64,000 bases of DNA, from assembly GCF_964204645.1 (NCBI RefSeq), contig NC_134029.1:9884850-9948849 (forward strand), given 5' to 3'. Within the stretch, counting starts at the first letter, position 1, and each line of letters opens with the position of its first letter. The stretch is from Tubulanus polymorphus. Taxonomy: Eukaryota; Animalia; Nemertea. The translations under genes were made by a program, and so were the position numbers. Positions 22,882-64,000 of the stretch are shown here, piece after piece. The notes under the pieces were generated by a model. It saw only the letters and a program-made list of their open reading frames with translations, made no database searches and was not told where the DNA came from.

Positions 22882-23034
22882 CTACAAGGAAAAATCTATA
22901 TACTTATTGTTTAAGGATTATAATGCTCTACACCATCACATAAAAAGTAGTTGTTCAAACTACTCACTTGAATCAGGTATCATTCGATTCGGACAACTCT
23001 TGCATTATTATTTTATATTATATGTTTCATCTAT

Positions 23035-23192: not shown

Positions 23193-23335
23193 TATGTTTC
23201 ATCTATTAAAGAGCAAATGCCATTAAAATAGAATATTGTGTAAAAGTCATTTTCAAATGTGATGTATTCACAAATGTCAAATATGCTACTGGTTTGAATT
23301 TAAGTTCAGACATTACTGAGAAATACGACTTTTAA

Positions 23336-26259
23336 CCCTTTCACGACCTATCCGGTATGACATACCGGATACAGAAAACACGAAACTGCCCAGTCCGGTA
23401 TGACATACTGGATAGAGATATACTGTTCAAATCACCCGCTATTTTGGTTACTGTATGGTGCTGCCACTCGCAAAGTGATGTTGCACCAATGAGACACCGT
23501 ACTTCACAAAAACGAAAGTAAAAATGGCTGCGCCCAGTAAAAAAGGCAGCGGTAACAGAAAATTATCAGCAAATGAAGTTTTAGATCGAATTTTAGCTGA
23601 CTCTGATTCTGATGACCAGGACATTGATGTCGGCGATGATTTAGAGTTCAGCAGGAACGAAAATGCAAGTGATGAGTACGATTCTGATTCAGATGAATTA
23701 TATGATGACAGTCTTTTAGATGATAGTTCACTTAGTGCCTATCCAGTTGCCATGGTTACGCATGAACACTCATCTGATGAAAGTAATGATTCTGTTGCTC
23801 AGCCTATAGCGAGAGGGCGTCCAAGACAGAGAACTGCAGGCCCAATTAGGCTCGTGGTATGGGACGTGGACGTGGCCGTGGTCAGGGACGTGGCAGTGGT
23901 GGAAATGTCGTTGTGCAACATGTAAGGCCTAATCCTTGGAACTGGACTGACACTGTGACTGGATATGCACCTAAAAATATTCCAGTTACAGCTGTAGAAC
24001 GTGTAAGGCATCGTTTTAACGAAAATGATAACCCTAAACCCATCGATTTTTACAATCTTTTCGTTACGGATGAACTTTTATATCTGATTATACGGGAAAC
24101 AAACCGGTACGCGCGTCAATACATAGCGGCCAACGGTGAAGAAGTGCCATTTGAATGGAAAGATGTGGATTTGCCAGAAATCAAACATTTATCGGTCTAA
24201 TGCTGATGGGAATAGACAATTTTCCGTCGATGCGGATGAATTGGAGTGCAAATGAACTTTTCCATACACCAATTTTTAGCCAAACAATGACGAGGAACAG
24301 GTTCGAACTCGTACTACGTTTCTTGCATTTCAATGATAATGATCAGATGCCAGACCAAGCAGATGCTAATCGCGACCGTCTATATAAAGTTCGCTCTCTA
24401 ATAGATTTCTTTCGACGCAAATTTCGTGCGATGCTTGAGCCCGGCCCAGATGTTTGTATCGATGAATCCTTGCTCCTCTATAAAGGTCGTTTACACTTCA
24501 AAGTTTATATTTAAAAAAAAACGAGCGCGTTTTGGGATGAAACTGTACAAGTTATGTACACCAAATGGTTACACAATTGACTTTTTGGTTTACTGTGGCT
24601 CTCCAGAGCCAAATGAGACATCAGGTTTTGAGGAACTTTCTGCAACTGAGAAAATTGTCGGTACTCTGATGGAACCACATCACCATATGGGTCGCTGTCT
24701 TATTGTGGACAATTATTATACCTCACCGCACTTGGCTAAATGGTTGTTAGATCAAGGAACTTACATTGTCGGAACTTGTAGGAACAATCGTAAGATGTTT
24801 CCAGCAGATTTGAAACTGTTGCCTGTGGACAAAGGTAAAACGGCATTCTCTGTTGAGAAGACGCGTCAAGTTTTAGCTATAAGGTTTCGAGGTATCAACG
24901 ATAAAGCTAGTGGTAAACCCAAAATTGTACATTTGCTATCAACAAAACACATGCCAGTTACAGAATTTGTAAAGTTTGACCACAAAAATAGAGAAATTAT
25001 AAAGCCAAAAGCGGTAATTGATTACAATCATAAGATGGGAGGTGTAGATCAAACCGACCAACAGCCCCACTCAATTCATACTGTTTGGAAAACGTACAAA
25101 TGGAGCACTAAACTAGCCGTTCACTTACTTATGCTAGCAGCCTTGAATGCTCACAAAGTTTGTAAGATGTCGTACCCGAGAAATGAGTTTCTTGGATTTC
25201 TCAAAGATGTTATAGCTATTCTGTTGACATCATCTCCGCGTCTCAGTGCCAATGTACTTCGGGATACTACCGTAACTCGTTTAACCGGACGCCACTTCCC
25301 GAGAGCTCGAGGCAACATCCCATCAGGTGCGAGGCGCAAAACTAAGATTTGTAGGGTTTGCTATGCCCGTGGATTTCGAACGGCTAATGGAAAACCAAAG
25401 GAAACTGTATTCATTTGTGTCAACTGCCCAGATCATCCTGGATTACACGTAGAGTCCGACTGTTTCTATGTCTATCACAATGTGCTGGACTATGGAGTAG
25501 AACCCGTGGACAATACAGACTATTGAATGGATTATTGTGTAAGAATACAACTAAATAACATGAAAAAAGAACTGATAAGGTAGGATCTAACTTTTATTTC
25601 ACATTCAATAGGATAACAAAGTATGTATATAAGTTTTACAGATAAATTGCGCTTTTCGGTCAAACTTGAAAATCAGCTTACCTATGGTATAAGGGTATAA
25701 AAAGAAAACATAAAGAGATATTTATAAGGCATACCAAAGGTTCTTCTTCAATTCTAGGGGATTTATAGTGTTATTTCACTATTCTAAGATTAAAAGCTGT
25801 TAAATTTTGTGTGGGGTTCTATGTTTATTGTGATTTTCAGGTTTGACCCAGAAATAAGGGGGCGCGAAAAATATTTTCTTTTCAGTAAAAACTGAAATTG
25901 TTGATTTTTCCCATGTTTGATAGTTACAGTGCTGCTAGTAGACCAGTTGATGTTCAAAATAAAGTTTGTTTTATGTTGCTATAATTTTTTTTAGTTGTGA
26001 AGTGGTCGTTTCCGTATAATTTTAGTCGAAAAATGTTGCTTCCGCAGCCATATTGGATCACGTGACCTTGACCTGGGGGGTCAAGGTCACTAATTTTTTT
26101 GCAGGAAACGATAGCCCCATATGTTTTCTATGTAGATAGTATGTTCATACTAGCTGTCTGTAAGTCATTTCTTTTTCCTGGGATCATTATGTATACAGGT
26201 CAAATATGGGCAAAATACCTCCGGGCCATTAGAGAACATATAGTGCGGTCACGAAAGGG
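23336..26259 (+). mobile_element. Full-length piggyBac element #1 (PGBD4-like), transposase frameshifted
   Basis: TTAA TSDs; TIR CCCTTTCACGACC / GGTCACGAAAGGG; subterminal repeat TCCGGTATGACATAC(C/T)GGATA x2. Confidence 0.93.
23524..25526 (+). pseudogene. piggyBac transposase pseudogene
   Basis: Acidic N-terminus, CIDES / IVDNYYTS / MGGVDQTD catalytic motifs, C-terminal Cys-rich domain; split over 4 ORFs by frameshifts. Confidence 0.92.
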
Positions 26260-26899
26260 TTAAATTGGCAATTTCAGGACGTGCTCACTATTATTGTTTA
26301 TGTAGGCAGGTGCATATTTCTGACGTCATCTCTGACAATAAGATCATAAATAGCGCCACAGCAGGTTGTACGTGAACTATATGCACAGAGTGAAAGATAA
26401 ATAAATGACACAATTTACGGCTAATTCGAGCAACTTTTTTCGATAAGTCAGATCTCAGGTCATTATATTTATACTCAAGTTTCTTCTGGTTAAGAAATCC
26501 CGTAAAGTTGCATTTGCCAGCATTTGCCCTTTAAGTGATTATCATTGGATATATTGGTGAAGTTTTAATGCTGGGTATTAATAGAGTTTTCTGACCTTCC
26601 CCAGAAAAGCCTCTTGTCTTTACTATTTCTTTTCCCCTTTCCGGCCAGAAAAATTTCATAAAATGTAACCTCTCTCAAATTCCACTACTAATCGGTAATA
26701 AGCGCTCTAATCAATGCGGTGATCATTATAGAGTTCTGAAAGCATGGGCTAAAATTAATTTCTAATCCCTAAATTCCGAATTTTACCTGACGGACGTGAC
26801 TTCTGGTTATGGATACTTGAAGTCCAAAATGCTCTTACAAACTGAAACCTCTTATGACCTTTATAAAATGTATTCGATCATGCATTCCAATGTCCACTA

Positions 26900-28080
26900 C
26901 TGGTTCACCAAATTTACAGATATCTACCACAAAGAATCACGAGAGTACTGAGATAGATAAAGCTGCTGAAAGAGCTATTTTACTGAAGAGTGGCGGAAGT
27001 AATGGTACTGATTGTGACACTGATTGACGAGGACAATTGTGAAATGTTAGCTTGTTCTATCTCTGATTATGATTTATTCCTTTTTCAAACTGTGTATATG
27101 ATTGCCAAGGAGCAGATGCCAAACGAAAAGATTAACCCAACTCTTCAATTACAAAAATTGAATTGAGTGAAAATTGACAATCAGAATATCTCTTTGCACA
27201 CAATCAGCGATATTGAAAATTGTCATTCTGATTCTTTAAAAGGTGACCTTGTTAAGTGTTTCAAAAAATCTCCAGCATTCGTTATGATGTTAGATGAATC
27301 TGATGATATATCTGTGAATACGAAATTGGCCATGTGTATCAGATATGTTGATAATAAAGGCAGTCCAGTGACTAAGTATTTGAGCACATGGATAAACATA
27401 CAACATTGTTAATAACGTAAAAGAGATCTTTGACCGCCTAAAATTATCAGAGTGCATGGGGAAGATACAGATGGCGCATCTACAATGGTTGGCCGTAAGA
27501 CATGTGTTGGTGTAGAGATGATAACGAAGTACTGCCCATTTTCTTTACAGACCCATTGCCTTGCACACTGACTAGCCTTAACTTGTGCAGACTCTTTTAA
27601 CCCTTTCATTGCTGACTAATCAATACCCTATAGTGCTAGAGATAATTTGAAAATTTTGAAAAATTCCACCCTAGCGTGTTGAATAATGGAAATACCACTA
27701 TAGTGCATCTACACCACTGCGCAGTGTGTTGTTAGTTACTAATATTTCACTATGTTTGACAGGTGCTAATATCTTTCAGTAGAGATAAAAACTAATTACT
27801 AATTCTATCAATACAACACAGTGGTCTAGACACACTGAAAAGGTTAAAGGAATGAAAGTATTGGAAACATTTCAGACCAATTTTTATTGTCTCTATAGAT
27901 TTTTAACAACTTATCTGTATGATCAGCCAACCTTGATAAAATGCAGGCAGTTTTGGATGACCCTTCTTTGAAATTAGAGGAAACTGCTTTTACTGGCTGG
28001 CTTAGAATGAGAAATGTGGCAAGGGCAATGAATAAAATCTACCCGTCTGTGTTAGATAATTGCGAGCACCAGGCATGCCT
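26900..28080 (+). pseudogene. hAT transposase (ZNF862-like) remnant, N-terminal/catalytic part
   Basis: MMLDESDDIS..LAMCIRYV, DTDGASTMVG, THCLAH.LALTCADSF; the frame resumes after the MITE at 27601-27843. Confidence 0.8.
27601..27843. mobile_element. piggyBac MITE inserted in the hAT transposase
   Basis: TTAA|CCCTTTCA...TGAAAAGG|TTAA; same family as 45554-45840 in opposite orientation. Confidence 0.85.
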
Positions 28081-28084
28081 ACTT

Positions 28085-30647
28085 TACCCCGATGTTTCAG
28101 TGTAACCTGCGCCGGATTTTAGCTGCCACCACCTGTGTATGCAAGTAAAGGTTCAATGCATCCCATTGAAACTATTGGAACGGTATGTTGCTACTCAAGA
28201 ATTTTGCGAAAATTGAAGTTGAAGCGAATTGCAGTTTTTGGAATTTTATCGCTAAATTTGAAGTAAATGTGACATTTCCGGCACTGTTTTTGGAGAAAGG
28301 AACGTTCATAAAATGTCACGCAGGTTTAGTGATCATGAAATAAGAGAGATATTTGCTGACAGTGACTCTAATGACTCAAACGCTGAAAGTGGTTCAGAAA
28401 GCGATTTTGAACCCGGAAATGAAACCGAAAGTGAACCCGGAAGTGATTTAGATGCGGAAGTAAGTGACAATAATGGTGAAAATAGTCCTGTAAGTGACGA
28501 TAATACTCCTGATAGTGATGATAATCAGTCTGCTGATAGTGACAGTACTGATAATGACAACCCCAACCCCCAGCAGTACCTGTCGTCCGTGGTCGGGGAC
28601 GTGGACGTGGTCGAGCTACTGCTGCTTTTAGAGGCAGGCAGGGTCGTGGAACTGGGAGAGGTCATGCCCCAGTGCGTGGTCGTGGTGGACGTGCACAAGG
28701 TGCCAACATTGATCAGGATCCTGATTGGGCTGAAGATAGAAACCACCCCCCTCCTAACTGGTTGCCGCAGTACAACTGTCTGAATCCAGGTGAGTCCAAG
28801 TTCGATACAACGGACTACACGCCAATTGACTTTTTCATAAAAGCTTTTCCGGACACTATTATAGACATGCTAGTGACTGAAACAAATCGTTATTTTCAAC
28901 AATAGCAAAACAGTGGAAATACTACTGATAGTGTTCTAGAAACCTGGTATAATGTCACTAGTGACGAAATGAAAGCATTCCTGGCATTGTTGTTACTGAC
29001 GGGATATGAAGATCGGGGATCTTTTCGTGCACATTGGTCTACTGATCGTCGGACTGATAAACCAGGATTCCGAGCCGTAATGAGCTGCAATCGGTTTTTG
29101 ATGCTATTACGATTCTTGCACCCTGTGAATAACGAAACACAAATTCAAAGAGGGCAGCCTGGTTATGACAGGACATTCAAGGTCAAGTCTTTGATTGAAT
29201 AGCTAGTTCGCGCATGGAATGACGCCTTCCATATGGAAAAGTTTCTGTCCGTGGATGAAGGCATGATAGCCTTCAAGGGTCGAACTTCTATGTTGCAATA
29301 CATCAAGAGTAAGCCTGTCAAGTGGGGCATGAAAGCATGGATACTGGCTGGGTCGAAACTGGTTACGCCCACAATTGGACGCTGTACAAAGGAGCGGACG
29401 GTAGTCAAGTTGACCTTGGGTATCGAGTTGTTATGGACGCATCGCAGAATGTTCGGGCTGGCCAGGTCATAACATGTGACAATTTCTTCACTAGTGTGAA
29501 ACTATTTGTGGACCTAACAGATCGAAACATTGGTGCCTGTGGCACAGTTAGGGCGAATCGTGCAGGAAATCCACTAAAACTGAAGCAATTCACGGCCCGC
29601 ACCAACAAACGACAATTGCAGGACATGTCGCCTTTGATGTTATGGCATAACGCGTCAGACATGTTAGCAATTGGTTGGTATGACAAACGCCCAGTTTGTG
29701 TATTGTCTACTGTTAGCAATGCAGGTGTCACTGTGAAGCGTATTCGTTCACTTGAAGGAGAGGATGGTTACAGACAAATCGAAAAACCAAATGCAATTGA
29801 GGACTACAACACGTATATGGGTGGAGTTGATTTGAATGATCAATACAACTCCTATTTCAGCATACTACATCGTTCAGTGAAATGGTGGAAAAAGGTTTTT
29901 TGACACCTGCTTATCACAGCAGTAACAAATGCATACATAATGCACAAGGTGTCCAATGCTGCTGATGCAATGACCAGTAGACAGTTTCGTTTGAAGTTAT
30001 GCCATGAACTTATTGCTGACTACCAACGTGCACCTCATCAACCTGGTCGTCAGATTCGGCATAACGATGCACCACAGCGTTTGAATGGAGGAGCACATTT
30101 TATGGAAAAAACTAATGGCAGGCCTGATTGTGGTGTGTGCACACTTAGAGAGAACAAAAAGTATGTTCGCCGGCATCAGACACAAAGGCAGTGTAAAACA
30201 TGTGTACCTCCTGTACCTTTGTGTGACGTTCCATGCTTTGAGATTTATCATCGTTTTGTGGATTATAAGCTGTATTGGAGGCAGAATCACATGAATAATC
30301 AGTAAAGTGAGACAAATCATGTTTATTTCAGTCTCTAATATACTTTTATGCTTTATTTCTTGAACAGCTAATGATTTTGAGACAAAAAAGACAATATTCG
30401 TCAGAATTTGTATGTTTTTCATGAATTTTCCATAATTTATCCCAAAAATGTTTCAAAATATGACAAATTTGGTATCATTAGAAAGCTTATAAAGAACTGT
30501 GCAAACGTTTCCCATACACCAAAGCTGTATCTCTAATAGGCTGGGAGCTACAAGCATTTGAATATAGGACGTTTTCGCCTTGCAATTACCTTAAATTAAT
30601 CTGGGACTGGGATAGCATGTGTAATAATTAATCCGGGTCTCAAAGGG
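28085..30647 (+). mobile_element. piggyBac element #2 (PGBD4-like), decayed transposase 28313-30305, left TIR not found
   Basis: SVDEGM, TCDNFFTS, MGGVDLND motifs and Cys-rich tail; right end GGGTCTCAAAGGG|TTAA at 30647. Confidence 0.88.
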
Positions 30648-30829
30648 TTAAAGGGAAGCAAACCAAAGGGTAATTATAAACAACAATAGTGAGTATGAAT
30701 ATAAATTGAAACTTAAAATCAGTAGTAAAGAGACAAACTAGGGGGCACTTAAATTAAAACAATGGTGAATACAAGATGAGAGACTAAAATTATTGATGAG
30801 TGACAAATAACAAAGGATCAAAGGGGAAA

Positions 30830-31066
30830 TCAAGTGTTGAGTTTAACCAGTTTACAGGAGAATTTTGATATAGGTTTACTAAAGTGTGAAAAACCATTGT
30901 TAAGATTTACAACGTTGTTCCAATGCTCAATTATTAATGCAGATTCCAAAATATGTCTTTTAGTTTTATCGCTGCAAGGGTAAATTAATTCAGCATTAGC
31001 GAAATCAAAATTCTGTGAGGTCTGAAATACATGACTAGCAACTCCGCTTTTCAGGTTTAAAGGCAT
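30830..31066 (-). mobile_element. Penelope-like element GIY-YIG endonuclease C-terminal fragment
   Basis: SGVASHVFQTSQNFDFANAELI..KRHILESALI..NLNNG matches the PLE GIY-YIG tail pattern. Confidence 0.7.
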
Positions 31067-31599
31067 GAAAGGATGGCTCCGACGATATCCAAATCACTAG
31101 AACATGTTCAGTCTCAAGAGGAGCCCCTATCTATAACTTTCCCATCTATCACTCAAGTTAAGCGTATTGCGCCTGAATTAAATCATTGACTACTTTTATT
31201 GAGCACGTAGGTTATGCTTTTTTGGATGAATTGAAGCCCGCGACCACAGATTTTATATATAGATTTCCCACGCAGCGCTATTGCATGTATATATATTACC
31301 GATCTGCAGTGGTTCTAGACAACAGCGGTGTTTCGCAATGATGTTGTAAAAAAAGATTTCAGAGATCGTAGCACCGGTTTTATGAGACGCTTTTCCGGTT
31401 TGTTCTTTAAGTACGCTTACGATCTAACATCAACTTTCCCCCAAGACCCTAACCCCCTATCATTTTCTCAACGGATCTACATCGATCTTAAGAATGATAA
31501 AAAAAACCTCCAACCGCCGAAAACTGCGGATCCGCGGAAGATTTTCATCCCTGTATATATTTAATAGGTTCTGTGTGAATTCCAATTGATGGGCTATTC

Positions 31600-32649
31600 T
31601 GTGGAACTGGCAGGTCAAAGGTGGCCGCATACGATGATGAAACTGTAGAATAGATGATGAAAGATTTCAAACATATCTCAGATGTAAGTATGGTGAAAAT
31701 ATATGGTCCAGTGCACTGTTTGTAAGATTGTAGTAGCTATGGAAGATGGAAATTCGCCTTCGCAGTATCTCATTCAGACTGCTCAAAACTTGTTTGAAAT
31801 GGAGGGAGATCTAAAAGATGCTGTCATTAAACTTATAGCGTTGTATTTCATAAGTGACATATACTATCCGCAGTGTTATTTCCAGCTATTGGGAATTCTA
31901 CAACGTGTAATTCTTCAAGAGAATATTGAACTGGGAAGGAGAGCCTATAAACTGCTGCAGCTGTTGACCTGCGAGTAGATAAGTGAAAAAATCGCCAATG
32001 ATCTCAAACTTTGAAGATAACCTTTTCACAGTTCTGTATGTGAGAACATTCTGTAATTTTAGTTTTCAACCCACTTGGGAATTGCATCCTAGCAAGCCAT
32101 TGCATTCACCTTTCATTCGTCTGTTTGCCTATCCCTAGACAGAGCGTGTTTGAAAGAGAGGGCGATCTGAAAGATTGAACTATGAAGATGGGAACTTGCC
32201 GTCGAAGTATCTAATTCATACTGCTCAAAACCTGTTTGAAATAGGGGAGATCTTAAACATGCTGCAATAAAACTCTTAATATTGCATTTCATATGTAATA
32301 ATAAGAGATGGGTACTTGCCATCAAAGCATCTAACTCAAGTGAATTTTGCAATAAGCACATTAAAAGTGTTTTGTATTTTGTGGAGGATGTGATTACTTT
32401 TTGAAATATTGGTTATTTAGATTTCATTAAATTATTTTGTAAATTAGGAGAGATGCCGAGGAGCCATGTTTACCTGGTGATGTTTACCTGGTGTTGATTC
32501 AGTAAATGTGATCAGTTTGTAAATAGTTTTGGTGATTCATTTATCGGATGAAGCTTATATAAAAAATATTGTGTTTAGTGTTCCAAATCATGTTTCATTT
32601 GAAAACGTTCCAAAATTTGTTCAGATATATGTTCCCAGTTTTTGCAGTG
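31600..32649 (+). mobile_element. CACTA/EnSpm-like 3' remnant with SAMD3-like ORF2 tail
   Basis: LIALYFISDIYYP..QLLGILQ motif (31703-31978), partly duplicated at ~32180-32290; terminus TTTTTGCAGTG at 32649, right where the hAT frame resumes. Confidence 0.55.
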
Positions 32650-32650
32650 T

Positions 32651-32880
32651 AGTGTGGTATGTGAATGTGCTTTAAGCACACAAAATAGAATAAAATCAAA
32701 ATACAGGGCATCACTCAAGGCCCAACAATTAGATGTGTTAATGAGGATTGCTATGATTGGACCGGCTTTTGACGCTTTTGATGTAAAACTTGTTATTATT
32801 TTGTGGCATAAATGAAAAGCGAGGAGAATGAGAAGGCTGGCATCAACATATATGCCAAGGGCTAAGAAAGCAAAAAAACT
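32651..32880 (+). pseudogene. hAT transposase C-terminal dimerisation domain (probable continuation of 26900-28080)
   Basis: SVVCECALSTQNRIKSKYRASLKAQQLDVLMRIAMIGPAFDAFD. Confidence 0.8.
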
Positions 32881-33649
32881 AAGTGTTGTGCAAATGTATG
32901 AATTCAGCTTGTGTTAGGAGAAATAAACAATTACTGTGGTTCCGTTAACATTAACTTCAATGTTTTAGATTTAGAAGGGTCAATATTCTATTCGAAAACT
33001 GGGTGATGAAACTCATATAGGGACATTGTTCCATTTAGTCTTTACTGATTAAGGAAAAAATTGTTATCAAATACTGTTTGACTAAAGTCTTTATCTGGAG
33101 CACTGAATGTAGCACAACAATCGCGCCTGAGAACAACACTGTATCATGCGAATCAACGTCACTACCAGGGATATAATCACCGGAGTCATTATCGTAAAAG
33201 TGCTTCCTACAGGTTGCCTTCTGATGTTAGATACCTATATTTGATACTAAGCTTAGTAAAGGGAAATCTTCTTTTATCAGCTAGGAGACATGTTGAGATC
33301 TATTTGGTAGTAAATGATCGTGTCCATAGAATGTGTCTGTATTGCGAATCTTCGTATATATATCTGTGCTGTGTCCATTATCCAATTCATTTTGCTTAAG
33401 TGAAGTGAGATTTCAAATACATTACGTGTTATCCAAACTTTATTGACCAATCTATAGATTCATTCTAAAACTTGCTACTATCATTATCTTATTAGTATAT
33501 TCCATATAAGTCTATTGGTTTGTTATTTTGTGTATACTAGTATCGTTACTACGGCATTTTTTGACAGTATAATTATTAAGATTATTACTTAGCATCTATA
33601 TTTGATAGTATTCCTCATGTCAAGTGAATTATGTGCTTAATAAATGTGC

Positions 33650-33722
33650 TTATATGCATGTATCTGTGTATATGTATGTGTCTATTTATGGATGTGTGTG
33701 TATGTGTGTATGTATATGTATA
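33650..33722. repeat. Degenerate (TG/TA)n microsatellite
   Basis: tatgcatgtatctgtgtatatgtatgtg...gtgtgtatgtgtgtatgtatatgta. Confidence 0.7.
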
Positions 33723-33789
33723 TTGAAGTTCATCAATAAGCTTAACTTTTCTGCTGTTTTGTGGACTTCAAATCAGCATTTGACTAACC

Positions 33790-34480
33790 TCAAGGCCCTG
33801 TTCTATAAACTTTTACAATCTAATGTTGCGGGTAACTTTTCAGGTATACTTCAAGATATGTATGCTCATGTACTCTCTCTTCAAAAGATTACTTAAGGTT
33901 CAGCAAACCATTTTATTTGACCTTGGGTTTGAAACAGGGATATGTTTTGAGCCCTTAACTATTTAATCTTTTCATACATGACCCCCTGGCCCTGACAGTC
34001 ACTGCAACCCAGTTGAGCTTCACGATACTTATGAACTCTGTTTCCTATATGCTGATGACCTTGTTATTATTTCAAAATCTTAAACTGATCTCCAAAACGT
34101 CCTTCATTCTTTAACTGTCTACTGTAAGAAATCAGGTCTCAGTGTAAATGAGCTCAAAACCAGTTATTATTTTCCGCCGAAGTGGAAGGTTCTCGCCAAA
34201 TGTAGCTTTCTTTCTTTGAAAATGAATCTATTGATATTGTAAAGGAATATAGTTATTTGGGAATTATTTTTTGTTTTAATGATAATTTTAAGAAGGCATG
34301 TGACAGACTCGTTGAGCATGCCCATAAAGCCCCTTTCAAATCAAAAAGAATTGCTGTGCAGAATCATGTAAAATCTGCTCTGATTCTGTTCGATAGTTTG
34401 ATTATCCCTATAATTACATAATACTGTGAATAGGATGCTTCTTATATAAATAACTTCGATCCATCCAACTTCTATAATGT
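33790..34480 (+). mobile_element. Non-LTR retrotransposon reverse transcriptase fragment
   Basis: GLKQGYVLSP.LFNLFIHD and FLYADDLVII motifs, later EYSYLGIIF. Confidence 0.8.
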
Positions 34481-34879
34481 TTGTGAATCTCCAGCAGCTC
34501 AAGCGCACCAACGAGCTGCCCAGCCACCTGGTCAGGCATCATTTGGGGCAGAGGGCGTTCCTCAGTGGCAACCTCCCTAACGTAGCTCAATGCAGCAAAT
34601 GCCAAAGCGCCGCAGTTGATCGAAACACTTCACCAATCCATGGAGGCAGCCAATGTGCATTTAGGTGAGGAACAGGTCGTCTGTTCGACCTCACCCTCCG
34701 ATTTTGAGCCATCCACAGAGTTCACCCACCATTCGGATCCATCCACAGCCTGTACATGACTTTCCAATCCACCCACCGTACTGAGCCAGAAATTCTTAGC
34801 GCTCTAAAAATCTGGTCGCAAAAAGACCCAAGAAGTGCTTTTAGAAGTGACGATAGGTCAATGAACTCCGCCCAAACAG

Positions 34880-35188
34880 CATTCCTGGTTCTATGTAGGA
34901 CATCTAGTGTCCCTGCATAGCAGGGCCTAGTATGTAGTTTTACCCAATTTTTGACTTAGAATATAGACTATGTATGTTGTATCAAAGGATGCTTATGTCT
35001 TCTTTTCTACGTAGGTCAAAATGGCACGACGTGAGAGATTTACTGTAACAAATGTGTTGAGTATGGTAGATGGTAATGATAGTGACCTTGGAGATGGCGA
35101 TTTTGAAAGCGATGATGAATCAGAGGTCCGTGTTGATGACTTGACTTCTGGCGACAGTAGTGATGAACAGACAGAAGATGAAGAAAAA

Positions 35189-35222
<34 letters not shown>

Positions 35223-37112: not shown

Positions 37113-37116
37113 TTAA

Positions 37117-37860: not shown

Positions 37861-37899
37861 TTCACCAAACGCAGCTGCAACAAGCTAATGTAGAGTTAG

Positions 37900-47640: not shown

Positions 47641-47644
47641 ATCA

Positions 47645-52300: not shown

Positions 52301-52834
52301 TATCCAAATTATTATTGGAAGAATATGTGTAGAGATGTAAAACACTTTGTTTACAGTTGCTTGCAACCAACGTAAGAAACCTAGTAAACCTGTACGTGCT
52401 CCAGTCCAGCCTCAGGATATCCCTGAAGGACCATTTGTAAAAATTTCAGTAGATTGTGTTGGACCTATTACGAAGATGGTATGACGCAAATTGCAGTTTT
52501 CGTTTGTAACTTCACACGATACCGTGAGGCATTCGCTGTTCCGGATACCACAGCACCTACAATAGCCAGGGTCATGTATGACCAAATTCTTCTCAGATAT
52601 GGCTTCTCGCCGGGTGAATTATTAAGTGACCGGGGAAGCAATTTTCTTAGTGAAATGGTCGAAGAAATTTTGAAGCGAGCAAAGATTAAACATAAAAGAA
52701 CTGCGTCATTTAAACCAAAATGCAATGGTCTGTGTGAAGTGACAAACAAAACTATAAAAACGCTCCTTTCCATGATGATTTCTGAGAAACATACCGATTG
52801 GACCAAATATCTAAGGGCCGCAATATTTGCGTAT

Positions 52835-55800
52835 CGTCTACGGACCCCCAGTACAGCCCTCTGTATCATTGGTTTTTTTTAAAAATCTACCTGAATTTTG
52901 TCGTTTAGTGAGAAATAACCTATGGTACACCGTTCTGTATAAGCTCCTGCTGCCATCTACCAGTAGTAGTAAAAGTCATTACAGTCGTTGACACTACATT
53001 CTTCTTTCAAAATGGCCACTCCCATGCAGGATGTTACTGGACGCAAAAAGCCAGGTAATTTTTCACTTTATTTTTCATCAAGACCATGTGATTGTAGTGT
53101 TGACAAACAGATGATACCTTTCACCGGTAAATGTGCCGTCCGACAATTTGTTAAGAACAAGCCTAACCCAACTGGTCTAAAGAACTTTACTCTGGCTAGT
53201 CCAAGTGGTCTTGTCCTGGATTTCGAAATTTTTCAGGCAAAAATACCCTTCCAGGTGCAGCAGCAGATTGTCGTCATCCGCGAAAACTGGGAATAGGGGG
53301 ATTAGTTGTATTAAGACTTGCAGAAAGCTTGACCGTGGGTAATTCAATCTATTTTCAGAGATATTTTACAAGTACTATTCTTCTTGAAAAGCTACTTGAG
53401 CGTGGAATTTACAGGTACCATGATGAAGAAAAATAGGCCTTTTATAGTGAAATTACCAACCAAAGTTGATGGTCCACGTGGATCATACTATGCTACTAAT
53501 CGTCGTGATGCAAAAATCAGTTGTCTAGTGTGGATGGACAATAAACCCGTAATAATGGGCTCTACACGTCATTGTGGCATCCCAAATGATAACTGTCAAA
53601 GGTATTGTTCAGAGTTGCCACTTATGTGAAGCTAAAAATCCGGAAAATAAGTCGGGGTCTGGGAAAAATTTTTTAAATTAGAACGTCAGGAGATGCGTTC
53701 TGGCACAATATGCGTTATAGGCCTCACTTTCATTACCGGAAGTGTGCAGTGCTTCATCTAGCATTAAAAAAGGGCAGGGTGCTGATTTCAAATAAGGGCA
53801 TTTTTGTGCGTGATTCCATTGGAGCAAGGGCACATAATAATGCACTCACGTCTGTTTTAGGGGCAAACTGCAATGTTCCCTATTGCATAGAATCGAGGTA
53901 CCCCCTACTACGATTGAGGACTAGAAACTATGTTTAACTCTGATTTTGCCATGAGTGACACACTTGACCACAGTACATCCTTACACCTATGCCTGTCAAT
54001 GAACAAAACCAGTTGCAGACAAAAAAATAGCAGAAAAAAGCAATCTCAAAAACCAAATGATGCAGCGAAAAAGAGCCAGCAATAGTGTATAGGCCTACAT
54101 GAAATTGCATATTTTTTATCTTAGAAATATCAAATTAATTGATTTAAATTGATAGTGTTAGTGATTGGCAAGTAACTGTTGATAATTGGTAATGAGCCAG
54201 CTTAAGAACACATTATTGATATTAGGCTACTCAAACTAATTGTCTCTGCGAGTCTCTCTGTGAGTTCACCGAACAAAGTTTTTCACCTTGTATATATAAA
54301 ATTTGTCTAATAGTCTAGATAAAAAGATCTAGAGCATCACGATGTGTTCAAAAGGAATCGAATATACACTACCAGCTTTACAACGGCAGTCGCTAGAATG
54401 ATTGGCAGTAGTTTGGAAGTCAGCCAATTTCCTGGAAACTTAAACTAGGCCACGCATCTGAGGCACGTTTTCACACGATGCACACTGACTGCAGTACATT
54501 TAAATATAACCACTGATCACATGAGCTACTATCGTTGATATCATACAAGATATTTCATAGCCGTCGCAGGATACTTACTAACAGTCGGATGCGTCAGCTT
54601 ATTTTGAAAGCCCTGACTCATTACTTGTGACTGACAAGGGAAGGAAGGTGGAAGTGATGAGGGCACAAGGGCGAGCATGGGACACATCTGAAGGGCACAA
54701 GGGCGGCTATTTTCGGGGGCGTGGCAGACCGCTCCTCTATTTTTGGCTAGATGAAGCACTGAGTGTGTATCAATTTTCACGTCTGTCAATTACAATCCAA
54801 TGAAAATCTGTCGCTTCAAACTTTCAGTAAGCATTTTCTCAAAGGTTATACACTCACTCACTCCAAGATATGTCAATAACAACAATGTGTATAGATCATT
54901 TTTTCAAATAGCGATTGGTTCCGTCAAATACACCTCATATATAAACCAGAGCCAAAAACAAACGAAACGCCGGTCGATTTCGATCGTCACGTCATCATGT
55001 TTAATCGTGTACTGCGGGGTTGTTCCCACTACGTGGCAGCACAATACGGCTTTTTCCAACCCTCTACGGAGCCGTTACGTTATGATGTTTAGGGTCAAAT
55101 CCTGAATTGATTTTATTTTTTTCGCGATGTTTTCTTTTTTGGTTATTTGACTTCTCCCGAAAATCCAGAAATGAAATTGGATTTTTTTTAAATCCGGAAT
55201 TCCGGAGAAATCCGGAGAAGTGGCAACTCTGATTGTTACAAAGGACAAAGCGTATAAAGTTGTTCCACGCCCAGCCGTTGTAAAAGCATACAATGAAAAC
55301 ATGGGCGGGGTAGACTTGAAGGATAGGATGTTATCATTTTATCGTATTGCCGCTAAGTCTAGGAAATGCACTCTGCGCACAATCATGCATTTCTTAGATT
55401 TAGTTTCGGTTAATACATGGATTGAATGGAAAGCAGCAGAAATACAAAATGGAGAGGGCAGGAAACATAGATTACAGTATCTGAAATTCAAGATCGCGCT
55501 GGTCGATTTCTACTTGCTATCGATGAAGATGATGATTCCGATGATGATCATGAAATTCATAATCGTTACAATCCATTACCCGCAGAGCCTCAAAGGTATG
55601 TTAAGGCACGACACTTGCCAAGATGTGTTGACATTAGAAATTATGCGAAGTGCCGCAATCCAACATGCAAGATGAGAACACGAATTATGTGCATTTTCTG
55701 TCGAGTTTTCTTGTGTTGTAATCCAGACCGTAACTGTTTCGAAGACTTTCATAAGAAATAATTTTTTGTTTAAAGTGATTCCACATCAAAACTGTTATTA

Positions 55801-56057
55801 TGGTGAATCTAAATTGGTGAATCTATTATGCTTAATCTAAGCATTTTCAGGCAAAAATAAAGAGTTATGATTTGTATAATATTTGGTGTTTTTTAATGAC
55901 TTGAATCTCAAGGTTCAGAGTACTGTACCATTTTTGGGGGCCAAACCAGGCCAGATTTTCAAAATTTCTCCTAGGATATTGTTTATGCTCTAAAATGAGC
56001 ATGTATACCAAAAATGATCAAAATCCATAAAAAATTTACCCTTGGGTCTGTAGAGGG
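52835..56057 (+). mobile_element. piggyBac element #4, internally deleted, inserted in Gypsy C integrase
   Basis: Ends CGTCTACGGACCC / GGGTCTGTAGAGGG; [28 protein letters not shown] motifs and Cys-rich tail. Confidence 0.85.
53610..55231. mobile_element. Non-autonomous hAT-like element nested in piggyBac #4
   Basis: Perfect 14-bp TIR CAGAGTTGCCACTT / AAGTGGCAACTCTG; ATTGTT duplicated at 53604-53609 and 55232-55237. Confidence 0.85.
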
Positions 56058-56735
56058 TATGATACGAGTCCAATGAAATCGATTGCGAATTTCAGTCCGT
56101 TTTTTACCTAATGTTCCTTAGACATCCCAACACTCCGTTGGATAATGCATTATTGGAGCCAACTATAAACCCTAATGATTTGAATGAACACGTGCGTTTA
56201 GCTCAGAACAAATTAGAATACATGTATAAAGTAGCTAGAGATGCACTAGGGAATGCACAATCCGATTTTAAGAGACAGTATGAAAAATGGCCTCTGCACC
56301 TGACTATAGGTTACTAGGAAATTACAGAAAAGATTCATGTATTCAGGTAAATACATGAAAAATCCAGTAGCTGCGGATCGTCTGAAGCCATTTATACACC
56401 GTGACATTCTACCCATTGGCACTCAGCCTGACGACCCTGGATTATGATCTCGCAACTACCGATGACGATTTAGTTGATATTCCAGATGACGTGTATATCA
56501 TCAAAGAACTATTAGGCGATAAAATTATTGATGGGAAGCGTCACTTTAAAATATGGTGGGAACGCTATACTAGACAAGAAGCTACATTTGAACCTGAGGA
56601 AAATATCTTGAATCCTAAATTGATTGAGGACTATTTTAAGTTGAGAAAAAAAACAAAAAAATAAGTAAAGTTAAATTTGGGGGTAAATTAGTGAGGTGTA
56701 CAGAGTTTTGTTTTCCTTCTTCTTTTAGACCGGAT

Positions 56736-59323
56736 ATGAAGGTTCAAATGTTTCTCATTGGTATGGTGATGGCGGTTATGACGCACCAGACAGGCGCATC
56801 CTCTAATTCAGTCGTGATGCTTAATTGGGGGTGGTTTTTAATAAGTTTACTGCAATTTTGAAAGGGTGTCCTAGTATAGGCACGCGTTTTGTATTCCGTG
56901 GCCCAAGTTCGATTTAGATAATATTGCCGAATTACCCTGTCCTCGTCAGCCTGGGAACTCGCCCTATGATGGCTGCGATATTTTAAACTTCGTTTTAAGG
57001 AAGTTGAACCTACAGATTGGTGAAACTCGAAAAGAACTTAATGCGAACATCGCTATCATAAAATCTCTGATACCCGTTAAGGCAAATAATAAACGGAAAC
57101 GAGCTTTAGGATTTTTTGGCAGCATTGCAAAATCACTTTTTGGCTTGGCTTCCGACGATGAGGTTCAAGCCTTGAAACAGCATGTAGGGAAGATGGAATC
57201 GGGTTTAGTGGGGATGACGGATCAGATTGTCCAGCAAGGGAAAACTTTAAATTCATTCATGAACACAACGAACAAACGAATTGAAAATGCTATGGATGGG
57301 ATTGAACAAAATTATAAGTTACTACAACAATTCGCTGACACTTATAAGCGACAGACAGCAATCTTTCGTGAATCTCAAAAAACTATCTAGGCTAAATATA
57401 TCCGTTTCTTTCTTGTCTGTTCTCATTGGCAATATGGTAGATTAACAATATCGATTTGGAATAGTAGTTCGACACTCCGATGAACTGTTACAGGCAACGC
57501 AACTTCTTTTAGATGGGTTCCTGCCCATAACAATGGTGGGTCCGGAGAAGATTATAACAGTGGTGAACCACGTTGAGAATCTTTTGAGTGATCACTATCC
57601 GAGCTTTAAGGTCACCCATAATCACCCTAGTTTTTACTATCAAATGCGTGACATCGCTTTTACGCAAACCGATCAATATCTATACGATACTATTGCGGTT
57701 CCGATACACAGTATAGCTGGGTTCATGGACGCATATCACATCGATGCCCTAGCAGTTCCGTCTAATGCTACCAGCGCAAATACTACGAAGATTGTAGGGC
57801 TACCTCAGTATATAGCGATTACTAAAGATAGCGAGTATTATACCGAGTTTGATAGTGATAGTTATTGTCATGTACAGGACGGGACCTTTAGTTCTGTTCG
57901 ACGACTAGGTCCCTTAATTCTAGAAACAAATTGTCATGAGCGTCTGCCCTTTTCTGGGATCAGCCGGACGAAGTGATGAAGCGATGTGACATCCGCTATG
58001 AGGAGGCATTGCTATTTGAGGGCAGCTACAAATTAGCTGATGGACGTTACCTTCTTTCTTCGGACGATCAGGTCTGGATGATGCATTGCTCTGACAGGCA
58101 GGTTAAATCTTTCACCGGCTGTAGGCTATGTGTGATGACTGTACCATATTTTTGCTCGATAATTGCTTCGACTTTTAGGATTCCATACAAATTGACTGGT
58201 TGTCAGCTTGGAAAGGTTGACAAGACAGCACTTCACGTCATTAACCTGCCTGTCTTACATTCATTGTTTTCAGACAAGGCCGCTCTGAGGAAAATCCGCG
58301 GGAATGAATTAGCTACAGCTCCTTTAGTTCAATTACCAGAGTTTAAATTAGCGAAGGGGGATTGGGACTCCTTAGCAAGTAAAGAAGCTGCATATTCCAC
58401 GGATCTTAAGAAGTTGACAAAAGCCCATAAAGAAAACATTCAACTGTTTGCTTCGAAAGCTAAAGCCCTAAAGCAGGACCTAGCCTTGGATAACATCCAT
58501 AGCTACCTGTTGTCATCGCCGACGTCACTTGGTATCTTATCAGTGCCTACCATTCTCAGCATAATTGCTATAGCCATTTCTTTATATATGTTCTTAACTG
58601 CGCGGTTTAACCTAGCGTCATTATTTCCGGTCGCAGCACTTCTTGAGTCCCAAAATGTTCCTCTGGTGGAGTCAAATAAGACTCTCACGTTTGTTGACTC
58701 CTTTAAAGGTGTACAAGATTCTCTTTGATATGTAGAGTATGATATACTTTTATGCTGGATACTTTTATGCTTGTAGCCGTACTGTATTGTTTGGCCCATT
58801 ATATCTATGATGATGTCCGACATCTTATTCATTTGATTCGCGGTTCAAGATGCGGGGTTAATCGCTGCCATTCTCAGGTCACAGCAGAAATTTCAGATGG
58901 GGTATCTTGCATCTTATTGCCGTTGTTAGACATTACAGCGTGTCCCGGAGAGATACAGCTTTTAGGTTGCCGACTCTCCGTGGGGTTATCTGTTATTCGC
59001 GTTATCTGAAGCTGGACATTCACCTTAATTGGATTTCAGATCTTAAGCTTGTTTTCGGTAATGTTGAAATACTAGTGTCTGATAAGGTACGCATCACACC
59101 ATCTGTGTATAGACAGGTTGACCAAATCAAGAAGTCGAAGTTTTGCTTAAGCCTGTACCTTAAGCATCATGACCTCTTGATGCCTATCATTGCTAAGGCC
59201 AAAGATAATCCTGCTGTTTTGGTCCTTGATTCTAGTGGTCGGGGCAGTAAGAGTGATGGGTTCACTCCACTTTTGAGGGGGGAAAATACTATCTATCCTC
59301 CCTTGCCGAGCTACAGGCCATGA
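56736..59323 (+). pseudogene. env-like class I (F-type) fusion glycoprotein of Gypsy C
   Basis: Signal peptide MKVQMFLIGMVMAVMTHQTGA, furin site KRKR|ALGFFGSIAKSLFGLAS fusion peptide, heptad region, Cys-rich block, TM segments; several frameshifts/stops. Confidence 0.82.
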
Positions 59324-59512
59324 CCTTCTCATTGAGATGATGTAATTCTTCTATAAGAAATATTAACTTATTATTTATTTATACACTCATCTATTTACGA
59401 GTAAGTTCATTCGTAGTCTTTACTTACCGACTTCCGATAGTATTCTGGGTTAGTGTTATTATTATTATTATCATCATATACATGTATATTGTTTTTTCTT
59501 TATTGATTAAAA

Positions 59513-62373
59513 CCCTATGTTGCATATTGGTTACTGAAGTAACTATAGGATAAATTTGGCCTTAATAACCAATGGCTTAATATTTTCCACCAATGCATAG
59601 ATGTACACTTTATTTACCTAGCTTAGTACAATATATGTTGGATAGGTGGCTCTACGTGAGAGTTTCATAGTTCCAAGATGGCGGCCTCCAGGCCAGCAAG
59701 GTGAGTTTTCAATTTTTTTTAGAAAGACAGTCAGTATACCTCAGTGAGGCCTTGCATTCATGAAACTAAGTGTTAGATATATGATATATGTTGCATAGAA
59801 CATGCTAACATCAAAGAGTTTTCATGGAAAAGTGAACTCAAAAAATAAATGATGATTTTGTATCATGGTTACTGTAGTGTACATTGCGCATCAATGGTAA
59901 ATCTTGTCTGGTCACTTGAGTAACCATCATGCATTCACGGATGAAATGTCATTTTTATTTCAGGAGTAAAAGAACACTCCTAAATGTTTCTGAGGTGATG
60001 GAGAGGGTGCTAGAGGATGATAATGAATTATCTGAGATTGAAAGTGTTTCTGGTGACGATATGGAAGATGACAACTATCCTTCTGGAAGTGACAATAATA
60101 GATTTTCAGCATCAGACGGTGATGATGAGTCAGAGTATGAACCAGGCGCCGCTAGTGGTAATGGAACAGAATCAGAGGATGCACCTGAAACTGACTCGGA
60201 GGATGAAATTGATCCCGATAGTCATGGAGACGGGCCGCCACAAAATAAAAAGAGTCACCCTAATGATAAGAAAGGAAAAGCAAAGACAAACTCCGAAAAA
60301 AAGTAAGATATTACAGGTTTCAGGATTTGAGTGGTTCCTTGAATTACTGCTGCTGACAAAAGTATTGGAAACTTATGTAGATGCTTCTCCCATAGACTGA
60401 AGGGGTTGACCTAATACTAAATGTCTTTTTTTATGGATTTCAGTGGTAGAAAAGAATGGAAATGGGTGCACGCTGACTTGAGTGTACACGTGTCAACTGA
60501 GAACAAATTAGAACCGAGAAATGAAGCAGCAACTACACTTACGGCCATTGAAATGTTCTTAGTGATGGTCGGCGGTGATAAAACATTTGAACTGTTGGCT
60601 CAGGAGGCAAACCGTCTGAAGTTTCAGTTAGACAAACAGAAAATCAAAAGTATTACACCAATAGAAATGAAAAGATTTTTTGGAATAGTTTTATATATGT
60701 CCGTGGTTCACCTCCCCCGTAGGAGGATGTATTGGTCCAAAAACACCAAACAACCCGTAGTTTCAAATTCAATGTCCGTAAACAGGTTTGACCTGATAAT
60801 GTATCTTTTACATGTCAGCGACAACGAGCTGCAGAAGCAAAAAGGTGAGCGAGGTTACGATAGGCTTTACAAAGTGCGGCCATTACTTGACATTTCTTCA
60901 AAATCATTTGCTAGATATGCAAAATTTGAGGCACATTATTCGATAGATGAGCAGATTGTACCCTTCAAGAGCCAAAGCTCATTGAAGACATACAACAAAA
61001 ACAAACCAAATAAATGGGTTTACAAAGTTTGGGCCCTGGCCGGGCAATCCGGTTTCATACATAAGTTCTACTTTTATGGGGATAATCAGGTACCTGAATT
61101 AGAGACACAACCTGGTGCAGGTAAAAGCGGAGCTGTGGTATTGTATCTGGTGAATGGGTTACCAGCAGAAACCTATTTCTATTTTGACAACTACTTTGCG
61201 TCTCCGCAATTACTTTTAGAGTTGAGTTCGCATAACGCATATGGTACATGTACTCTCAGAAAAGGTAGAGATGGGAAATGCCCTTTGAAATCTGAAAAAG
61301 AATTACGAAAATTAGGTCGTGGCTCTGTAGATTATAAAAGCAGTGATGGAGTTATAATTTGCAAGTGGTTTGATAATAAAGTGGTAACAGTTGGCTCAAA
61401 CAAACATTCTGTAGAGCCGATGAAACTTTCTAAGAGATGGGATAAGAAGAACAAGAAGTATATTGAAATACCCTGTTCTTATATAATAAAAGCTTACAAC
61501 AAATGTATGGGTGGGGTTGATCGATGTGATTAGCTCATGTCATTGTATAGGACGAAACTCAAAACAAGAAAGTGGTATAAGAGGATTATATTCCATCTAG
61601 TAGATCTCTGTATTTGTAATGCCTGGACATTGCTTCAAGCTAAAGTCCCAAAAGTAAAGCAGTTGGCGTACTTCAAAATAGATGTAGCTAATTGCCTGAT
61701 GACTTCTGATGAAGGTACATGTAATTTGAATGAGGAGAATGGAAATCAAGGTCCTGATAATCCTGCAGACACCACTTCTGTTAGGGCTATTGATATCCCC
61801 GATTATGTACGCTTTCACGGAATGCACCTTCCCAAACAGGAAGCTTCAATCCCAAAATGGTGCAAATTTCCTGGTTGCCACAGACGTACAAAGTATCTGT
61901 GCATGAAATGTAGAATCTATTTATGCATTGACAAACTGACTAACTGTTTCTATAATTTTCATGTGAAATAAAAATGTTCAAGGGACCACTGTTATGGAGA
62001 GTAAATTTGTGAGCATCAGAATGTCCTGTAAAATGTGAAATTACTGTTTCGTGAATTTTCTAATAAGAAATAAAAGAATTTGTTGAGTTCATTTAGAAAA
62101 AAGTTAGTTTTATTTCCTTTATATCTTTTATGGAGCTATTCTAACTGAAAAAAGGAGAAAAATTGTTGTGAATGCATGTATCCTATATTGGTTACTCAAG
62201 TTGCCAAACGTTACTGATGCATGATGGTTACTAGAGTAACCATGGGCCACAGAGTAGATTTTGGCAAATTTGGAAAAAAAAATTGTGATATATTGCCTAA
62301 AGGACTCCTAACAACCCCACTCATGCAAAGGCAAGCCAATATGAGTACTAAAAGTGCTTCATGCAACAAAGGG
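59513..62373 (+). mobile_element. Full-length piggyBac element #5 (PGBD3-like)
   Basis: TIR CCCTATGTTGCAT / ATGCAACAAAGGG; right TTAA, left flank TTAAAA. Confidence 0.92.
59678..61971 (+). pseudogene. Three-exon piggyBac transposase with a single premature stop
   Basis: Exons 59678-59700, 59964-60302, 60444-61971 (phase-2 GT-AG introns) total 1890 nt; SIDEQ / FDNYF / GGVDRCD; TAG at 61531-61533; Cys-rich tail. Confidence 0.85.
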
Positions 62374-63227
62374 TTAAGTGTTAGGAACTGAGGGTGCATT
62401 GTTTGTCCTTGTTGTGTTCTTTTAATTACTATAATTGTAGACACAGCATTGGGAGTAATTTGATTTAGTATAGGATGCATTAGTAGTATATTAGGTTTTG
62501 TTTAGATTTATATTTGTTATTTATACGATCGAATTGGGGGTACTTTTCGCTAAGACTGAATATTTTACGTCTGAATTTGAGTTGCACTGTTTGTTATCTG
62601 GTCATTGATATTTTGATCTATACATTCATTTGAGTCTTTTTCCTGGCGATAACTGCGACCTTGCAAAGATTTTGTAGAGTTGCTGCCTGTTCGTCAACCT
62701 CGTCTGGACAGTGCTAAGGCCAGAATGTGATCGTCTCCGGTACATGCTACTATTCATCCAGAGCTACTTGCCAAGATACTGTAACTTGCGTTGAGTTACG
62801 AACAGATTCATCGAACGGGGGACAATTGTATTTGCGCGGTGAGAGACTGATGACTGTGCGGTAGCGCCATCTAACTTGTAAGTAACGCAATCCAATCCGA
62901 CCCTTCCCCTTTTGTCTTTTCTTTCTCTTTGTAGACAACCATCTAAAGAGGTAGACGTGTTTGATCTTTGATCCGTAGAAATCATTTGTATTCGCACCTT
63001 TTGTTATATCGCAGGCTTTGTTCAATGACTAAGTAAACAGTCAACTATACGAGTAACCGCATAGGCCTCCTTAGGTTTCCCCGGTCATTTTAGATAGACA
63101 TTTAATAGAACACAGCGGTAACTTAGTTAGTGGGCCAAGAACAGAACACGCTACGGTCGCTAATCCACAGTCTCGCGTGTTCAAATACTACAAAGCAGCG
63201 TATTCAGTTAGTCTATACATAACGATT

Positions 63228-63854
63228 ATGGATCCGGCCTTGGCAGCGGTTGTTTTAGGAGATAGCTATATCCGGCGACTGGAAACATTCCTATGGACCC
63301 AGTCATATCTGTTCCCAGCAGCTTCAAGAGGCTGGAACATGTCTGAACATAACTTTCATGACCCCCTGATGATAGGGTTAAGAGGGGGTACAGTTACGGT
63401 TATAAGCCACCCAACCTTTTTTAAAGAACAGGTCAGGCCCCTAGAGCCGCCGCTGGTGGTTTTAAAGATAGGGGGTAATGATTTGGACAACCCAGCGGTT
63501 AAACCTGCAGAGGTAGGCTACAGAGTCTATGACCTGGCAAAGGCTTTCCTAGCCCAAGCGAATTGTAATATCATCATTTGCCAGGTCTAAAACCGTCAGA
63601 AATGGCGTAATTTCACGGCCTGTGAGGGCAATAAGAGGGTTCAGGAGATGATTTTCTTCCTCCAGTTCGTTTGCCAGGGGCTACCAAGGCTTATATTTTG
63701 GAAACACAAGGGTCTCTGGCAGTCAAAACAAAATCTGTATGCAAAGGACGGGGTCCATCTTTACGGTTTGGGCCATTTCAAGCTTTTTAGAAGTATTAGA
63801 GGTGCCATTATCTATGGTGCTAAAAGCCTCCCCAAGGCTGAGAAAGGGCAGTAG
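63228..63854 (+). pseudogene. SGNH hydrolase of a Ngaro-like element, one in-frame stop
   Basis: VVLGDSYIRRL (block I), KIGGNDLD (block III), KDGVHL (block V); TAA at 63588-63590 with the same frame continuing. Confidence 0.8.
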
Positions 63855-64000
63855 TCCACCACTAGATAGCTTAAAAGGGGCTGTAGCCCAATAGATGATT
63901 TGAAAAGGGATGGGTAGTCCACCCTAGATAGGCCTATATTACTTGATTCGAAAAGGGTCTGTAGTCCACTCAATGTTTTATTTGAGACGGGTCGGTAGTC

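Follow-up and report, generated by a model that had tools for sequence, protein, structure and literature searches.

Why should the coding remnants of transposons from many families, lying together in what seems to be one intron of a housekeeping gene, all face the same way? The question is raised by a stretch of 64,000 nt from the ribbon worm Tubulanus polymorphus (Nemertea; NC_134029.1, 9,884,850-9,948,849; hereafter the window), in which a stack of transposon remnants adjoins the minus-strand gene that we take to be WBP4 (FBP21), following an earlier sequence-only reading of the same DNA. That reading saw in the stack a candidate cluster giving rise to PIWI-interacting RNAs (piRNAs), comparable with flamenco of Drosophila. 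Its observation is confirmed: the one-strand stack is a real, strong and well-delimited feature. Its interpretation is partly supported. By its layout the stack is a good candidate for a uni-strand source of piRNAs within an intron, and on balance we consider it likely to be such an antisense source, driven by the WBP4 promoter.

All stop-free open reading frames (ORFs) of at least 50 amino acids (aa) between 22 and 64 kb were scanned against Pfam on each strand. The plus-strand ORFs (138) contain five piggyBac transposases, two reverse transcriptases (RTs), an RNase H, an integrase and two chromodomains, together with gag-like, env-like (Baculo_F) and tyrosine-recombinase SAM (YR-SAM) domains. 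None of the 149 minus-strand ORFs matches a transposon family at E<=0.05, their best match of any kind having E=0.01, and in the 145 ORFs of the region from 1 to 22 kb no Pfam transposon match was found on either strand. Counted without any annotation, ORFs of at least 120 aa in the stack number 27 on the plus strand versus four on the minus strand. If an element is called well supported when a profile or homologue matches at E<1e-4, and fragments of one element are counted once, there are 11 separate coding elements (piggyBac-1 to -5, one CACTA, one RT of a long interspersed nuclear element (LINE), Gypsy-1 to -3 and one tyrosine-recombinase (YR) element), and all 11 are on the plus strand (two-sided P=0.00098 for a 50:50 background). 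Four weaker remnants are oriented likewise, namely a hAT-like one (E=0.0014), a second SGNH-like one (E=0.0036) and the frames at 31697-31975 and 42666-43067. DNA transposons make up six of the 11 well-supported elements and are as polarised as the rest, Gypsy elements three.

The polarity reported by the sequence-only reading therefore stands, as do its inclusion of DNA transposons and its five piggyBacs, LINE RT and three Gypsy elements, for which Pfam or profile matches were obtained. For some of its other names the outcome is mixed. One member of its plus-strand SGNH/YR pair is supported by a YR domain (E=1.1e-5), the hAT and the second SGNH element more weakly, at the values given above; one of its two CACTA elements (36954-37875) is borne out by relatives and the other, at 31.7-32.0 kb, found only an unnamed match in the Atlas. 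The Penelope scrap that it placed on the minus strand was not located in the Pfam scan of ORFs, in motif scans, or on reading through 32.9-33.7 kb and three stretches of 47.6-49.8 kb; it is neither confirmed nor excluded by these searches, which could miss a short decayed scrap.

The polarity is a rule of coding elements, because two copies of one short non-coding TTAA-flanked element face opposite ways and so break it. This element, a miniature inverted-repeat transposable element (MITE) of piggyBac type, is the sole opposite-strand pair of the self-tblastx comparison also seen at the DNA level; that comparison yields many short chance pairs with unreliable summed E-values. Its second copy (45550-45844) lies inside Gypsy-2, and MITE contigs reach a depth of tens of thousands versus about 40 for unique DNA. 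Self-BLAST gave no pairs of long terminal repeats (LTRs), and the 1.2 kb between remnants at 43100-44300 is unassigned, with no Pfam family on the plus or the minus strand. Elements, within approximate limits, account for about 82% of the 41 kb.

The host gene (LOC141905008) is represented in RefSeq by two isoforms of an uncharacterised protein with a WW domain, 308 aa (XP_074649800.1) and 375 aa (XP_074649801.1), both on one 24.9-Mb contig. The shorter begins at residue 68 of the longer, the N-terminus of which is complete and includes a zinc knuckle. By tblastn residues 26-375 of XP_074649801.1 fall on seven minus-strand exons from 22881 to 11926 (96-100% identity), the stop codon lies at about 11923, and a search with the last exon returned a single protein match, from T. 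polymorphus, at 100% identity. Residues 1-25, which include the N-terminal half of the zinc knuckle, have no match anywhere in the window, and the exon at 22881 starts mid-domain behind an AG acceptor at 22882. Because residues 26-375 map in the window and residues 1-25 do not, the stack is placed within one WBP4 intron that exceeds 41 kb and whose 5' end, together with the exon(s) for residues 1-25, would lie beyond the window if the RefSeq model is right. Both the model and tblastn agree with the earlier claim that WBP4 is on the minus strand and that the stack is within its transcription unit. The stack is seen over 41 kb and may continue past the right edge of the window. The six other WBP4 introns measure approximately 116, 170, 1287, 2732, 1997 and 3603 bp.

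How the stack was assembled can be judged from three public sequencing runs, used as contigs; all three were compared over 11-31 kb and two over 44-64 kb. They are treated as DNA because their contigs span introns and no WBP4 splice joint is found among the joints listed. Contig depth is a rough guide and not a copy number, unique DNA of run X1 having a depth of about 30-45. Other copies of Gypsy-3 in the contigs join 52830 directly to 56057 and lack piggyBac-4. Single run-X1 contigs bridge both junctions of piggyBac-4 with Gypsy-3 without differences, and therefore these joins are not assembly artefacts. Four captured copies have relatives elsewhere in the genome at about 1-10% divergence: piggyBac-2 (depth-175 contig, 16 substitutions and one gap in 1722 nt, about 1%), piggyBac-5 (contigs of depth 77-85, 27 substitutions in 1797 nt, about 1.5%), the SGNH/YR piece (depth-176 contig, 44 substitutions in 871 nt, about 5%) and the env region of Gypsy-3 (depth-105 contig, 93 substitutions in 979 nt, about 9.5%). 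Single-copy depth and no differences were found for piggyBac-4 and the hAT piece, which appear unique, and also for part of Gypsy-2 (45.9-46.8 kb) and for 62.9-64 kb. Every coding element is truncated or spread over several ORFs, in agreement with the earlier statement that every one is inactivated and nearly every family present once. One copy per family, nesting and mixed ages fit repeated capture.

The fate of a captured copy is best seen in piggyBac-2 (28668-30302), for which 15 coding substitutions are among those listed: three put a stop into the window copy, 11 are missense and one is silent. Three stops compare with 0.6 expected (P of about 0.02, post hoc), and the copy shows neutral decay away from a family in which the other members are free of these stops. 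Since the deeper contig does not carry the three stops, an open-frame target probably exists. The piggyBac-2 family may be recently active elsewhere.

From this layout we suggest the following course of events. RNA polymerase II would read the minus strand through the stack whenever WBP4 is transcribed, and in germ or stem cells some transcripts would retain the intron or end inside it. Such transcripts would be exported from the nucleus and processed into antisense piRNAs against each captured family, and these piRNAs would repress the related copies at other sites in the genome. Antisense insertions would persist owing to the immunity that they confer, while sense insertions, which confer none and may disrupt WBP4, would be lost; repeated capture would enlarge one intron more than tenfold. 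All steps beyond the DNA layout are ones that we infer, minus-strand transcription across the stack being implied by the RefSeq model. This scheme is supported by the contrast between one element-dense intron longer than 41 kb and six others of 0.1-3.6 kb, and by a polarity that spans retroelements and DNA transposons alike (11 of 11). Nemerteans possess piwi genes, according to the available text of PMC7764242. More tentatively, and in our estimation rather doubtfully, WBP4, a conserved single-copy splicing-factor gene, might also be a master transposon-immunity locus, its promoter driving an archive intron that is retained or internally ended and that stores DNA transposons, LINEs, LTR and YR elements in antisense, with the choice between splicing and termination setting the piRNA output. 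If piRNAs are made, a spliced housekeeping gene would host a broad-spectrum trap in its intron, contrary to the picture of exonic or downstream read-through sources, and the locus offers a concrete place for testing the trap model on DNA transposons.

The closest likeness in layout is found in slugs. Two reports, on Arion vulgaris (PMC11615739) and Deroceras laeve (PMC12506671), describe clusters of which most use a single strand; one of the top clusters yields minus-strand piRNAs from dense plus-strand fragments. These are lophotrochozoan loci with dense one-strand fragments, as here, where piRNAs would likewise be expected from the opposite strand; since a real piRNA cluster in a slug has the same layout (PMC11615739), this was counted in favour of the earlier cluster reading. 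The slug clusters were defined by small-RNA reads and the stack by its DNA, and the accessible parts of the reports do not describe them as inside an intron of a housekeeping gene. The comparison with flamenco was less apt. Flam-like loci of Drosophila share with the stack one-strand fragments antisense to the (here presumed) transcription, and env-bearing Gypsy remnants are present in it. According to the text available from PMC10643416, however, the bias in Drosophila comes from Gypsy only, whereas six of the 11 well-supported elements here, a majority, are DNA transposons; the syntenic fly loci quoted extend over 227-1085 kb, of the stack 41 kb is seen up to the edge of the window, and the stack is intronic. 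Strong one-strand orientation is thus found in the stack and Gypsy-specific enrichment or bias is not; because its bias is not Gypsy-specific, the stack is not flamenco-like in the strict sense.

In gene-driven clusters the promoter of a host gene supplies the antisense transcript, as it would do here. The examples, each from the available part of its source, are mammalian piC-DoGs (PMC11615739), mosquito read-through clusters (bioRxiv 2022.08.22.504762) and antisense tirant in 3' untranslated regions (UTRs) of fly genes (bioRxiv 2025.07.28.667215). As there described, they are found 3' of the gene or within its final exon, whereas the stack lies in an early WBP4 intron. A piC-DoG is situated downstream of the polyadenylation (polyA) site; the stack precedes the exon that encodes residues 26-46, the WBP4 stop being at about 11923. 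The nearest precedents in the accessible text of PMC11615739 are the human TMEM181 and CHD1L clusters, which include intronic space. A literature search by titles and the starts of abstracts found no nemertean piRNA-cluster map among the papers listed, and the Tubulanus genome and transposable-element literature so covered contained no title on the WBP4 stack locus. A search for intronic piRNA clusters with antisense transposons likewise found none; supplementary tables on the slug clusters could hold intronic cases.

Several points weigh against a piRNA source in this intron. In flies, the insertions that yield host-gene-driven piRNAs are exonic, in the 3' UTR, and the transcripts that carry them are exported (bioRxiv 2025.07.28.667215); hamster C12orf45 yields piRNAs from its exons and not its introns (PMC11615739). 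A spliced-out intron would therefore serve poorly as a substrate unless it stays in the transcript. In mammals, intronic LINE and LTR copies generally show an antisense bias (PMC3088655). Two scraps resembling LINE 3' ends (19150-19330 and 21400-21750), recognised by motifs and without a Pfam match, appear to lie on the plus strand in ordinary WBP4 introns too, and one strong splice-donor motif occurs five times on the plus and never on the minus strand of the stack (P=0.06), the direction predicted by selection. Such considerations lead to an alternative that we hold to be possible, if somewhat improbable: the stack would be a graveyard of transposons in an intron, owing its shape to nothing but selection on WBP4 together with local silencing, and would have no meaningful piRNA output. 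Sense insertions would disturb splicing or termination and be removed, antisense ones would survive and may nucleate heterochromatin, and later insertions would accumulate in a tolerated zone. The intronic position given by the gene model is what this explanation requires, nesting fits a tolerated zone, and antisense intronic copia copies nucleate local heterochromatin in ovarian somatic cells of the fly, as the accessible text of PMC13371464 has it. As in the stack, intronic copies in mammals oppose the host gene; the bias there, so far as the available text of PMC3088655 goes, is a statistical excess of LINE and LTR copies, DNA transposons being left out, and no single intron filled with long copies of many families is described. 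The probability of the polarity also depends on the background. The value of about 0.001 given earlier assumes a 50:50 background, and at an assumed, unmeasured antisense share of 0.8 it rises to P=0.086 for 11 of 11 and P=0.035 for 15 of 15; at 0.67, by contrast, 11 of 11 gives P=0.012. The full polarity of the DNA transposons argues against a graveyard, and avoidance of harm alone leaves unexplained why all long coding copies sit in one of seven introns. The sequence-only reading had itself named selection against sense polyA and splice signals as its alternative. PolyA hexamers in the stack are balanced (AATAAA 30 plus and 27 minus, with 38 and 34 expected from shuffles; ATTAAA 23 plus and 24 minus), and ordinary WBP4 introns carry 29 on the plus versus 12 on the minus strand, a weak contrast as the neighbouring plus-strand gene has no such depletion. 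AATAAA shows no depletion on the strand of WBP4, which means that facing antisense has not lowered the polyA load, contrary to a simple form of selection; hexamer counts are a crude test, since the promoter and terminator that a transposon itself brings weigh more heavily. Splice-donor motifs are mixed, GGTAAG occurring on the minus strand only (four times). Should piRNAs be absent, the locus would still be an extreme case of biased orientation in an intron and would caution that clusters are overcalled when judged by polarity alone. An antisense piRNA source and a graveyard are compatible and not mutually exclusive.

We consider it unlikely that the stack has a transcription unit of its own, either a piRNA cluster or a long non-coding locus, the overlap with WBP4 being incidental or a gene-model error (for example, 5' exons that belong elsewhere or a WBP4 promoter adjoining 22.9 kb). 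Residues 1-25 have no match in the window and the second isoform starts only at residue 68, which would suit such a unit, and human piC-9 overlaps CHD1L yet is interpreted as independent in the available text of PMC11615739. Against it stand the complete N-terminus with its zinc knuckle, the presence of both isoforms on one contig, the exon that opens mid-domain behind an acceptor, and the contigs that span the piggyBac-4/Gypsy-3 junctions.

Features of the WBP4 locus and its transposon stack (positions in the window)
Feature	Position	Strand	Evidence
WBP4 (FBP21, label presumed) 3' part, residues 26-375	11923..22881	-	tblastn; WW domain
WBP4 coding exons (approximate)	22881-22819, 22702-22631, 22460-22347, 21059-20891, 18158-18000, 16002-15739, 12135-11923	-	tblastn
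WBP4 intron, 3' 41 kb, preceding exon for residues 26-46 (predicted)	22882..64000	-	AG acceptor; residues 1-25 unmatched in window; gene model
piggyBac-1, full length, with a TTAA at each end and terminal inverted repeats; transposase split between frames	23332..26263	+	Pfam, self-BLAST
hAT-like (ZNF862/C17orf113 type) transposase remnant, 5' part	26821..28102	+	DUF4371 E=0.0014, zf-C17orf113 E=0.019
Highly repetitive short MITE of piggyBac type, non-coding, flanked by TTAA	27597..27847	.	85% inverted match to second copy
piggyBac-2, right end TTAA at 30651, left end undefined	28262..30651	+	Pfam, self-BLAST
Remnant matching unnamed eukaryotic protein clusters	31697..31975	+	Atlas score 0.97, low recognition value
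LINE-type reverse transcriptase remnant	33784..34440	+	RVT_1 E=4.8e-8 and 3.7e-4 on +, none on -
piggyBac-3 transposase, three pieces, element ends undefined	35015..36755	+	Pfam
CACTA/EnSpm-type transposase remnant	36954..37875	+	Homologue search
Gypsy-1, 3' part, with decayed integrase, chromodomain and env-like frame (approximate outer limits)	39000..41800	+	Chromo E=4.5e-11
Possible ORF1 remnant of tyrosine-recombinase retroelement, weak	42666..43067	+	Motif; without Pfam match or Atlas support
Gypsy-2 5' part: gag-like, protease region, RT; ends abruptly at about 47600	44580..47602	+	Pfam, contigs
SGNH-like frame, then tyrosine-recombinase N-terminal domain (one insertion)	47860..49396	+	Phage_int_SAM_1 E=1.1e-5
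Gypsy-3: RT, RNase H, integrase, chromodomain, env-like frame	49719..58725	+	Pfam, self-BLAST
piggyBac-4, nested in Gypsy-3, GTAT target duplication	52831..56056	+	Pfam, contig comparison
piggyBac-5, 26-bp inverted ends, transposase with one stop	59909..62242	+	Pfam, self-comparison
Second SGNH/GDSL-like retroelement remnant	63075..63851	+	Lipase_GDSL_2 E=0.0036; 33% to first SGNH piece

The five piggyBac elements share 29-41% pairwise protein identity and therefore belong to different families. Between the first two, the hAT-like remnant is interrupted by the MITE and probably also split by piggyBac-2; the segment 32603-32812, in a region (32.5-32.85 kb) without a Pfam family, is probably a C-terminal piece of it, judged from a motif. 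The remnant at 31697-31975 gave neither a Pfam match nor a homologue in the sequence search, and its label as a CACTA accessory frame is an assumption. For the CACTA transposase remnant, 393 relatives were found at E<=0.001; in 148 of the 150 examined the match starts at 37.0-37.5 kb, and all matches in the window are on the plus strand. DUF4218 or DUF4806, which we take to be CACTA markers, occur in four of 12 scanned relatives, and a homologue search with the shorter piece 37332-37538 found nothing. The flanks of piggyBac-4 show the GTAT duplication and not the usual TTAA. The element is split by a repetitive non-coding element of 1.6 kb (about 53609-55232) with CAGAGTTGCCA inverted ends, of which internally deleted forms are seen in contigs.

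Among the retroelements, the LINE RT was found by reading through stops (X) rather than in stop-free ORFs. Gypsy-3 contains stops and frameshifts and is divided by the insertion of piggyBac-4. Its RT is 65% identical to that of Gypsy-2, and its env frame 33% identical to the env piece of Gypsy-1. That Gypsy-1 and Gypsy-2 are a single element was thought unlikely: the 3' part precedes the 5' part, and the integrase-end and chromodomain pieces of Gypsy-1 have no BLAST match to Gypsy-3, while the RT of Gypsy-2 is similar to that of Gypsy-3. In two different Gypsy remnants (39989-41800 and 56640-58725) the integrase is followed by a chromodomain, and each also has an env-like frame, of which one matches Baculo_F. 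Positions 18704-18756 and 31444-31500 are 77% identical in the same orientation.

Outside the stack, the last WBP4 intron contains a 532-bp tandem duplication (13742-14813, 99.4% identity), either recent or an assembly artefact. Short fold-back elements occur at 9448-9758, between the two genes of the window, and at 23063-23198, just inside the long intron. The first 9 kb hold a multi-exon plus-strand gene with collagen repeats and an olfactomedin domain (1240-9053), convergent with WBP4. Its CpG observed/expected ratio is 1.14 versus about 0.7 in WBP4 and the stack, which may reflect a difference in methylation.

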